Shown here: positions 1 through 3,000 of the stretch, one piece after another
Layout: the number at the start of each line of letters is the position of its first letter
How positions within the stretch are numbered: position 1 is the first letter of the stretch
Position numbers: made by a program
Source of the DNA: a virus
Lineage: Duplodnaviria; Heunggongvirae; Uroviricota; Caudoviricetes
Reading direction: 5' to 3' (one strand)
DNA length: 12,266 nucleotides
Virus record (IMG/VR): IMGVR_UViG_2778261346_000006

Positions 1-3000
1 TGGCACACCGTTCACGCTGACGCAGTCACCGGTCAGTGCATTTGCGGCGGATAAACTGCATGTGACAGACATTACCAAAGGTGCGACTTACCCGGTGCTG
101 ATTGACAGCATTGCGGTGGAAGTGAACAACACAGACACTGCGGCATGATAAAAAAAACCGCCAGCGACAGGAATGGACGCTGGCGGTGGTAATACCTATG
201 GAGAAAAAATAAAGGAACGATACTTTCGTGCTCTGGTTTTTTAAATGAAAACAGTTCTTATTGTCAACAATAACGGAAAGAAATTATGACATTTCTGAAC
301 CAGTTAATGCTGTACTTCTGTACGGTGGTCTGTGTGCTGTATCTCCTTTCGGGTGGATACCGGGCCATGCGTGACTTCTGGCGCAGACAGATTGACAAAA
401 GGGCCGCTGAGAAAATCAGCGCCAGTCAGTCAGCCGGAAGCAAACCCGAAGAGCCGCTCATTTAGCGGCAACTTTCTTAATCACACCTTTCGACGAGAAA
501 ATCCCATGTCAGAAATTACATCCCTGGTCACTGCTGAGGCAGTGAAGGAAGTCCTGCGCTCTGAAGAAGTCCTGAGTGCACTGAAACAAAAACTTCGCCA
601 TAACCTGGAAGCGCGTCTTGATGCAGAAGTGGATGCCATTCTGGATGAACTGCTGGGCGCACCGGCAGCTCCGGAGCCGGAAGGTATCGCGGGTGAGGGG
701 AGTGCTTCAGATAGCGGTGACCCCACACCGGACAGCGACATGATGATGTAAGCATGCGTCAGGGACCATCGGTGTGTGCCGGTGGTCTTTTTTATTGTTG
801 TGAGCTTCCGGATTGCGGGAGACGGGGTATGTACCAGATGGAAAAAATCACAACAGGTGTGTCATACACCACGTCAGCGGTAGGGACGGGATACTGGTTA
901 CTGCAACTGCTGGACAAAGTCTCTCCGTCCCAGTGGGTGGCAATAGGTGTACTGGGGAGTCTGCTGTTTGGCCTGCTGACGTATCTGACTAACCTGTATT
1001 TCAAAATTAAAGAGGACCGTCGCAAGGCTGCCCGGGGAGATTAGGTGATGAACCATGAAGAAATGAATCAGCGCTTCAGTCGTCTGGAAAATGAAATTGC
1101 TGAACTGAATAAAAAACTGTCGGTGCTGATGCCTTCTGAAGATGCAAACAAACGCTGCGATGAGCAGTTTGCGGCGTTTTACGATGATTGTATCAAAATT
1201 GCTCGCAGGACCTTTGCGAATATTTTGCAGGAAAAGTTTTTACCGACCGCATTGTCAGAAAAGTACTCCATTACGGTTAAAAGTGCCGGAGAGGAAGGTA
1301 ATAAACGTTATTTTATTGCGTCTGCACCGGATAAAGACCAGGAATGGGAGTGTAATCGGCCATCCTTTGTTGTATCCGGTGATGACGGGAAAATCACCAT
1401 ATCAGAAAATGGAAAAGTAACACCGCCATCGCACCAGCACTGTGAGATGCTCATTGAATTTGCCATTGATTACCTGAAGAACAATAAAAAGCAAGGGCTG
1501 ATGAAGCGTATTGGTCGTTGCATGGGATATCTTCAGGTAACTGCTGAGATTGAAGCGCTGGCCTGTGGCGCAGACAGGGATACTGCGGTGCGGGAGGTCC
1601 TTCTTCGTGATTTCAATACTCCGCCCTTTAAGAAAGAGCCTGATGGCTGGATCCAGCCGGGGCTGAATTATCTCAAAGGGCGGATATAAGTTCAGGGGCG
1701 TTATCTGTTACCTGATAATTGTCTGAACAGGCGATCTTTTTGTGATTTGGCGTAATGATTATCCCATTCGCAATCAAGGTAACTTAATTCTTCATTTAAC
1801 CAGTCATCTATATTGTCTTTCAGGCGAAGGAGCAAGGTTGGTGTTAATGCTCCGGATATAATACTGAGAGTTGTAGTAGTGAGAGCTCCATACGGTTCAG
1901 CCTGAATGGCCTTTACTGCTTCGTGTTCTTGCGGGAGGAGTAAGAGGCATTCCGATTTTACCCGCTCATTTATGGCTTGCAGGAATAAATCATAATTATG
2001 TTGATGGTTATGCATGGTTAATCCTCGACTGGAATTGTCAGATATATTTTCAGCCAGCAGATAAAACGCCAGTGCCACCACTGGCGGGCTGAAAACTTAA
2101 CATATCCAGGGTTCTTGAACCGATAAATCCTGATAAATATCCATGAACGCAAAAATCAAATACGGCCTGTCAGCTGCCGTTCTGGCGCTGATTGCCGCAG
2201 GGGCTTCTGCGCCTGAAATCCTCGACCAGTTTCTGGATGAAAAGGAAGGTAACCACACCACGGCATACCGTGATGGTGCGGGTATCTGGACCATCTGTCG
2301 TGGTGCCATTCTGGTGGATGGTAAACCTGTTGTTCCTGGCATGAAGTTGTCGAAGGAAAAATGCGACCAGGTTAACGCCATTGAACGTGATAAGGCGCTG
2401 GCATGGGTGGAGAAAAACATCAAAGTGCCGCTGACCGAACCCCAGAAAGCGGGGATCGCGTCATTCTGTCCGTACAACATTGGTCCCGGTAAGTGTTTCC
2501 CGTCGACGTTTTACAGACGAATTAATGCAGGTGATCGAAAAGGTGCCTGCGAAGCGATTCGCTGGTGGATTAAGGACGGTGGCAGAGACTGCCGTATTCG
2601 TTCAAACAACTGTTACGGTCAGGTATCCCGTCGTGACCAGGAGAGCGCGCTGGCGTGCTGGGGAATCGACAGATAAGAAGAATATTTTGCTGAAAAATGA
2701 GGTTTGCTCACACGGACGGATAACACGAAATCCTGCGAACTGACAAAAACTAAGTGAATAAAAGTAAAAACCCCGTTTGTTGGCTGCAAGCGAGGTTTTG
2801 TGTTTCCTGACTCTGGAAAAGTCAAAGGAGAAAGTGTGTTTGATTTTAGCAAACTGATTCGGGAGATTCGAGTGATGGCTGAAAAATTATCTACCTGGAA
2901 GTTCATTCTTATCTGGCGGGTGTTTGTGATTATGGCCTCCGGTTATTTCATCGGTCAGATACGCTGGTGGTGAAATGAACCGCGTACTGTGCGTGGTCAT

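Follow-up and report, generated by a model that had tools for sequence, protein, structure and literature searches.

The window analyzed here, a 12,266-nucleotide stretch of the IMG/VR virus record IMGVR_UViG_2778261346_000006 (Caudoviricetes), was found to be the late region of a lambdoid prophage. Two small open reading frames (ORFs) had been placed at 286-751 by the initial annotation, and both could be confirmed as ORF-A (286..465, forward strand, ATG start, 59 amino acids) and ORF-B (506..751, forward strand, ATG start, 81 amino acids, with position 751 including the stop codon). The upstream neighbour of ORF-A was the 3' end of a NanS-p-type sialate esterase gene (to position 147), and downstream of ORF-B lay the first gene of the lysis cassette, an S21-type pinholin (829..1044, forward strand; PF04971, E=8.5e-33) with dual starts at Met1 and Met4. 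Neither small ORF had been considered recognizable; however, both belong to catalogued families, DUF1378 and DUF826, and are annotated as such in RefSeq. ORF-A matched the Pfam model PF07125 (DUF1378) with 134 bits against a cut-off of 25 (E=2e-39), its residues 1-59 aligning with model positions 1-59, and also matched phrog_494 and the RefSeq entry WP_000143458.1 ('DUF1378 family protein'). ORF-B matched PF05696 (DUF826) with 132.6 bits against the same cut-off of 25 (E=5.7e-39; residues 1-75 aligning with model positions 1-75), phrog_311, and WP_001290214.1 ('DUF826 domain-containing protein'). Judged by these alignments, ORF-A is an ordinary member of DUF1378 and ORF-B an ordinary member of DUF826.

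The feature is already known in the sense that both families have been in Pfam for years. In the searchable literature, the only mention of the two families was a passing one with no function reported, which describes genes of unknown function with DUF1378/DUF826 domains between nanS-p and S (PMC10462455). A second literature hit was a typographical error for DUF1738, and a search by locus tag returned nothing relevant. The additions made here are a five-context synteny that includes lysis cassettes outside Escherichia, the correction of a 139-148-amino-acid annotation of the region, and the finding of no support for a DNA-mimic function of ORF-B.

Comparison of approximately 150 fetched loci revealed that every copy was intact and started with ATG (148 of 148 DUF1378 copies and 114 of 114 complete DUF826 copies). 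The median pairwise ratio of nonsynonymous to synonymous substitution rates (dN/dS) was 0.21 for DUF1378, 0.20 for the N-terminal domain of DUF826, and 0.50 for the DUF826 tail. The analogous pooled in-frame ratio (pN/pS) was 0.43 for DUF1378 and 0.53 for DUF826, compared to 1.1-1.4 in the two shifted frames used as a control. Because full-length Pfam matches, purifying selection, and intact copies were found together, ORF-A and ORF-B could be confirmed, at the level of sequence comparison, as real genes under purifying selection. The region from 150 to 1100 of the window was 100% identical to the chromosome of Escherichia coli O145 strain RM9154-C1, where the prophage is a lambdoid one without Shiga toxin (stx) genes. 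The segment comprising the pair and the start of the holin matched 2437 of 5426 complete E. coli genomes (approximately 45%), with a maximum of 14 copies in a single genome. Similar DNA was present in 346 phage records, mainly Stx1- and Stx2-converting phages, and the two families were found in about equal numbers of records (306 and 309).

ORF-A contained one hydrophobic span at approximately residues 4-24, with only three uncharged residues ahead of it, and a tail with eight lysine and arginine residues against five aspartate and glutamate residues. The AlphaFold2 (AF2) model consisted of a single continuous helix from residue 2 to residue 48 followed by a disordered end. The N-out/C-in orientation of DUF1378 was predicted because the three-residue N-terminus is uncharged and the tail is basic. 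ORF-A is accordingly described here as a predicted bitopic inner-membrane protein with a basic cytoplasmic helix reaching to about residue 48, and the single-span membrane peptide with a basic cytoplasmic tail that had been proposed earlier agreed with hydropathy, charge, and the AF2 model. Across lineages, DUF1378 proteins kept the invariant core LY..V..L.L..GGY followed by a conserved D37 and K43. ORF-A and the DUF1378/phrog_494 families had in common the core LYF..V..LYL.[SA]GGY, an equal length, and the same prophage setting. Among the matches listed in a protein search with DUF1378, all were E. coli 'DUF1378 family protein' entries. The size and single span of ORF-A and its place in the cassette would fit a holin or antiholin in some contexts; holin models matched the neighbouring S gene only and not ORF-A.

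ORF-B contained six lysine and arginine residues and 18 aspartate and glutamate residues, giving a net charge of -12 (-5 in the N-terminal domain and -7 in the tail) and an isoelectric point (pI) of 4.1. The AF2 model placed helices at residues 2-17 and 20-49, which form a hairpin, with a predicted local distance difference test (pLDDT) score above 90 over residues 21-50. The tail was disordered (pLDDT below 50 over residues 57-74), rich in proline, glutamate, aspartate, and serine, and ended in MMM in the window copy. In alignments, the N-terminal domain (R..NLE.RLDAEVD.IL.ELLG) was near-invariant within E. coli, while the tail varied in length and sequence and stayed rich in the same four residues; most copies ended in MMM, MML, or TML. 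The protein is predicted to be a soluble cytoplasmic one, formed by an acidic helical hairpin with a floppy acidic tail, and both composition and modelling bore out the acidity, the helical N-terminus, and the D/E/S/P-rich tail noted in the initial annotation. A HMMER search of 1.84 billion representative proteins returned only 56 clusters, all of them DUF826-like, with no fused or named domain.

Several database entries for DUF826 homologues could be corrected or qualified. Two apparent DUF1378-DUF826 fusions (P0077 and P0235) were frameshift read-throughs and not true fusions. In a 103-amino-acid database protein (P0095) matching both PF04971 and PF05696, approximately the first 37 residues of the S21 holin run directly into DUF826, which is present from its residue 25; this junction probably arose by deletion, by recombination, or through an assembly error and is not a designed fusion. 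The label 'head completion protein' is attached to DUF826 homologues in PV340554.1 (L003, 5221-5511), ON416862.2, and PQ600365.1; this name found no support from Pfam, PHROGs, structure prediction, or gene position.

Comparison of gene order revealed five genomic contexts. In the first, lambdoid context, to which the window belongs, the genes were arranged as NanS-p, an antisense small RNA (sRNA), DUF1378, DUF826, a hairpin, and the S21 pinholin; the gene order NanS-p, DUF1378, DUF826, S21 pinholin was present at more than 70 lambdoid loci and was kept even by deeply diverged DUF826 copies. The second context was the right end of Mu-like phages of E. coli, with a Gin invertase, a NanS-p-like esterase, DUF1378, DUF826, a hairpin, and a C5 methyltransferase; no holin lies nearby, and these phages carry their own homologues of gp22, gp23, and gp25 approximately 25 kb away. 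The third context, found in about 30 contigs, consisted of an S21-like pinholin, an R21-like signal-anchor-release (SAR) endolysin, Rz/Rz1, DUF1378, a hairpin, and a tail spike, without DUF826 and without the esterase, and here the ATG of DUF1378 overlapped the Rz stop codon (ATGA). In the fourth, Mu-like prophages including those of Cedecea neteri and Mixta tenebrionis carried tail-fibre genes, DUF1378, a hairpin, and a Dam-type methyltransferase; a DUF826-like gene was present only sometimes, and it then stood before DUF1378, so that the order of the pair was reversed. The fifth context was seen in Lonsdalea britannica (L156) and in a viral contig (L168), where a lambda-S-type holin (PF05106), a lysozyme without a SAR-type N-terminus, and Rz (PF03245)/Rz1 were followed by DUF1378. 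In this arrangement DUF1378 abutted the end of Rz, and the ATGA overlap could be directly read in L156; a third such contig (L173) was cut at the gene. The Rz proteins of the third and fifth contexts were unrelated by BLAST.

A lysis cassette adjoins the genes in three of the five contexts; in two of these, which have unrelated holins, endolysins, and Rz proteins, DUF1378 forms the last cistron and overlaps the Rz stop. This recurrence inside lysis cassettes elsewhere had been missed by the initial annotation. DUF1378 occurred alone in the third context, the fifth context, and part of the fourth, and phage DUF826 adjoined DUF1378 in either order. Because DUF1378 can stand alone and phage DUF826 was found beside DUF1378, DUF1378 looks like the core of the system and DUF826 like an add-on partner. 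The pair as a whole is optional: prophage PP2 of enteropathogenic E. coli (EPEC) strain E2348/69 carries the esterase, the PasA sRNA, a hairpin, and an S21-type holin without the pair. The type of holin was rejected as a predictor of the pair, since S21-type cassettes occurred both with and without it. A profile-based locus search of species-representative genomes confirmed no locus; further loci came from a longer degenerate DNA pattern, and two metagenome hits (L190 and L194) were chance matches to a pattern.

The deposits named 'Stenotrophomonas phage vB_SmeS_BUCT708/709' (L002 = OM816835.1; L085-L108) were of the third type, with a G+C content of 47-49% in the fetched region. Stenotrophomonas genomes are far richer in G+C than this. 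The SAR endolysin of these deposits had 74% identity to that of E. coli, and near-identical contigs were present in human gut metagenomes. The assignment of Stenotrophomonas as their host appears doubtful.

The translation and transcription signals around the pair were read from the window. A Shine-Dalgarno-like GGAAAG (275..280, forward strand) precedes the ORF-A start by 5 nucleotides, at a place where other DUF1378 copies have GGTGAG, GGTAAGG, or GGGAGGG. Ahead of the ORF-B start lies a weak Shine-Dalgarno-like GAGAAA (495..500, forward strand, with GAG at 495-497), in place of which Mu-like DUF826 copies have AAGGAG. Of the plausible ribosome-binding sites claimed earlier, GGAAAG and GAG are thus modest examples in the window. 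A simple scan of four contexts (the window, L109, L112, and L116), which a weak or non-canonical promoter may escape, detected no sigma-70-like promoter on the forward strand ahead of the pair. Because the two genes are always co-directional with the late genes and have no visible promoter, ORF-A and ORF-B would most simply be late genes that form part of the late transcript.

Between ORF-B and the holin, a terminator scan identified a G+C-rich hairpin with a T-run behind it (761..796, forward strand; hairpin 761-790, 13 pairs), with a folding energy of -25 kcal/mol by RNAfold. This hairpin resembles an intrinsic terminator, which would stop transcription that is not antiterminated. A hairpin was located 3' of the last cassette gene in every context, and EPEC PP2, which is without the pair, also has one before its holin (L153, ~2650-2690). 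In published EPEC RNA-seq data the esterase had a baseMean of 102 versus 3.5 for the holin behind it, a ratio of approximately 30, as would be expected if transcription in uninduced cells terminated ahead of the lysis genes. These values were not usable for the expression of the pair, as the PP2 prophage does not carry it.

The properties of the pair were compared with those of the releasin gp25 (DUF2730) of phage Mu. This protein has an N-out/C-in topology, four periplasmic residues, and basic residues at the membrane junction (PMC9239132); its cytoplasmic part is anionic and Ser-rich, and its gene lies just downstream of the spanin genes (PMC9239132, Chamblee et al. 2022). DUF1378 is similarly small and is predicted to be N-out/C-in with 3-4 periplasmic residues and a basic membrane-cytoplasm junction, and in the third and fifth contexts its gene directly follows those for the endolysin and the spanins. 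DUF826 resembles the cytoplasmic part of gp25 in being anionic and Ser-rich. Unlike gp25, however, DUF1378 has a short, basic cytoplasmic part, and the acidic portion resides in a second protein. The position downstream of the endolysin does not apply to the window, where the pair lies upstream of the holin, or to the Mu-like phages, and one of the lysis-cassette contexts (the fifth) has an endolysin without a SAR-type N-terminus. No homology to gp25 could be detected, and there was no Pfam hit to DUF2730.

Because DUF1378 recurs in or against lysis cassettes and has a gp25-like topology, the reading that we tentatively prefer, with less than even confidence, is that the pair is a non-essential, late-expressed, membrane-anchored lysis accessory which would tune the timing or efficiency of envelope disruption. 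In such a mechanism, DUF1378 and DUF826, with no recognizable promoter of their own, would be carried by the late transcript. DUF1378 would span the inner membrane and expose about three residues on the outer side, and its transmembrane helix would run on into the basic cytoplasmic helix. Given the charge complementarity of the two proteins, DUF826 may dock on the basic tail of DUF1378, which would produce a membrane-tethered acidic module at the cytoplasmic face. The target could be the holin, the release of the membrane-anchored (SAR) endolysin, or the spanin step. A more specific proposal, that DUF1378 represents a new kind of accessory protein in lysis cassettes, that DUF826 serves as its adaptor in the cytoplasm, and that DUF1378 modulates the holin, SAR-endolysin release, or the spanin, is possible but on the unlikely side. 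In most Stx-converting phages the pair lies between the Shiga toxin/NanS-p genes and the lysis genes. If the pair tunes lysis, it would have an effect on the release of toxin and on phage yield in an important pathogen; as a lysis accessory in Shiga-toxin phages, it would help to set the moment of lysis and hence the amount of toxin and esterase released.

Several observations weigh against a role in lysis. In the Mu-like phages the lysis genes lie approximately 25 kb away from the pair, which occupies the cargo end beside orphan DNA methyltransferases, and the pair-bearing phages keep their gp22, gp23, and gp25 homologues. DUF1378 as a replacement for the releasin in these phages was rejected, as the gp25 homologue is retained. 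S21/R21 cassettes also occur without the pair, as in EPEC PP2. The proteins S, R, and Rz/Rz1 suffice for the lysis of phage 21, and any lysis role of the pair would therefore be accessory. The sites before S and after Rz are classic cargo sites as well, so that adjacency alone is weak evidence. Profile comparison revealed no homology of DUF1378 or DUF826 to gp25/DUF2730 (hhalign probability 0.2%). In addition, a distant short DUF826-like gene was found alone in a non-phage island.

As the main alternative, the pair could be portable cargo unrelated to lysis, in the form of a small inner-membrane effector with or without a cytoplasmic partner, acting in superinfection exclusion, counter-defence, or host-membrane modulation. 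This is a possibility to be taken seriously, though we consider it rather doubtful. The pair is variably present between otherwise similar prophages and occurs in at least five genomic contexts, in lambdoid, Mu-like, and other phages of Escherichia, Cedecea, Mixta, and Lonsdalea. Its neighbours are themselves cargo (the NanS-p esterase, the antisense sRNA, and the orphan C5 and Dam-type methyltransferases), the cassette ends in a hairpin in every context, and the segment reaches up to 14 copies per genome. An independent cargo unit fits less well with the lack of a detected promoter of its own, with the constant co-direction with the late genes, and with the overlap of the DUF1378 start and the Rz stop in two unrelated lysis cassettes; moreover, neither PADLOC nor any known exclusion or anti-defence family gave a match. 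The comparison with lambdoid morons, as defined by Juhala and Hendrix and exemplified by bor, lom, and stx, was divided in the same manner. The pair is like these genes in being optional between conserved late genes at a known hotspot, in having a hairpin terminator at its 3' side, and in being common to unrelated phage backbones; unlike them, it has no detected promoter, it is always co-directional with the late genes, and in two contexts translational coupling joins DUF1378 to Rz. Consequently, of the moron hotspot proposed for this position, the variable cargo region before the lambdoid lysis genes with an optional pair was upheld, whereas a moron in the strict sense was not, as a sigma-70-like promoter was not found. 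If the pair is exclusion or counter-defence cargo, it would help to explain the coexistence of many related prophages in one cell.

It is improbable that the pair assists the NanS-p sialate esterase in its export, release, or membrane association as part of a three-gene module. The order NanS-p, DUF1378, DUF826 is kept in two unrelated backbones, the lambdoid late operons and the Mu-like right end, and no holin follows in the Mu-like phages. This arrangement was counted at 101 of the 133 loci with enough flanking sequence, counts that are biased because the loci were fetched by DUF queries. However, NanS-p is absent from the DUF1378 loci of the lysis-cassette contexts and of the Mu-like phages of Cedecea and Mixta, and EPEC PP2 has NanS-p without the pair.

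The idea of the initial annotation that ORF-B acts as a DNA mimic or anti-restriction protein is highly improbable. It could draw on the net charge of -12, the pI of 4.1, and the position of the Mu-like copies beside orphan methyltransferases, which are themselves anti-restriction cargo. However, seven of the 12 net negative charges fall in the disordered, length-variable, and weakly constrained tail (dN/dS 0.5), and the conserved part is a 50-residue helical hairpin with a net charge of only -5. Unlike mimics of the Ocr/ArdA type, ORF-B has no rigid DNA-like acidic array, and no similarity to ArdA, Ocr, any other known mimic, or any solved structure was found. Beyond their own DUFs, neither member of the pair had a significant match in a PDB sequence search, PADLOC, or NCBIfam, and comparison of the DUF826 model with viral structures by Foldseek returned nothing significant. 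Furthermore, the gene belongs to late and not early transcription units, and its partner is a membrane protein. No positive evidence for a DNA-mimic or anti-defence function was obtained.

An in-frame upstream extension of ORF-B (332..505, forward strand), which is not a gene, begins at a GTG at 332 and gives a 139-amino-acid ORF (332..751); a single 'hypothetical protein' of 139-148 amino acids is annotated in this way in the older records of 933W (ST933Wp43) and VT2-Sakai (VT2-Sap45) and corresponds to phrog_8301. That the region encodes this one protein and not two small ones is hardly conceivable, because the pN/pS over ORF-A is 1.14 in that frame versus 0.43 in the frame of ORF-A itself, the open stretch upstream differs in length between lineages (27-66 codons), the Mu-like copies have a strong AAGGAG directly before the start codon of the 81-amino-acid gene, and the Pfam model spans the 81-amino-acid part only. 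From these sequence comparisons, the 139-148-amino-acid annotation is an over-extension of the 81-amino-acid DUF826 gene.

Between the esterase gene and ORF-A, an antisense sRNA candidate could be recognized on the reverse strand (~150-232). It is preceded by a promoter with a perfect TTGACA -35 box (267-262) and a TAAAAA -10-like box (243-238), and it ends in a strong intrinsic terminator, a hairpin (CCGCCAGCG...CGCTGGCGG) followed by T8. Comparison with the Rfam family Esr41 gave a weak full-length match, whose 30.9 bits (E=0.013) fall short of the gathering score of 102. Table S6 of PMC8550237 places EPEC PasA in the interval that separates the esterase gene from the next one, on the opposite strand. 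The candidate has the position and orientation of EPEC PasA/PasC, named EcOnc51/52 in enterohaemorrhagic E. coli (bioRxiv 10.64898/2026.05.13.724894). The proposal that PasA is the 3' end of the ORF-B mRNA was rejected, since PasA is encoded by the other strand (PMC8550237 Table S6). Several Mu-like copies also have related hairpins and promoters next to the esterase.

Downstream of the pinholin, two cargo ORFs with no Pfam match separate the holin from the endolysin. The first encodes 214 amino acids (1045-1689, forward strand; phrog_1085) and the second 126 amino acids (1701-2081, reverse strand; phrog_1853), with a terminator-like hairpin beside the latter on the reverse strand (2086-2067). 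This holin-endolysin insert was found in only some related prophages. It is followed by a lysozyme-family endolysin with a SAR-type hydrophobic N-terminus (2143-2676).

The distant DUF826-like gene of the non-phage island encodes 61 amino acids and was present in L202-L204 (~5001-5186), alone and without DUF1378. The small integrated element that contains it carries a DUF927 primase, a single-stranded DNA-binding protein (SSB), PerC, AlpA, and Hok, and the DUF826-like gene is located just before a fimbrial-like gene.

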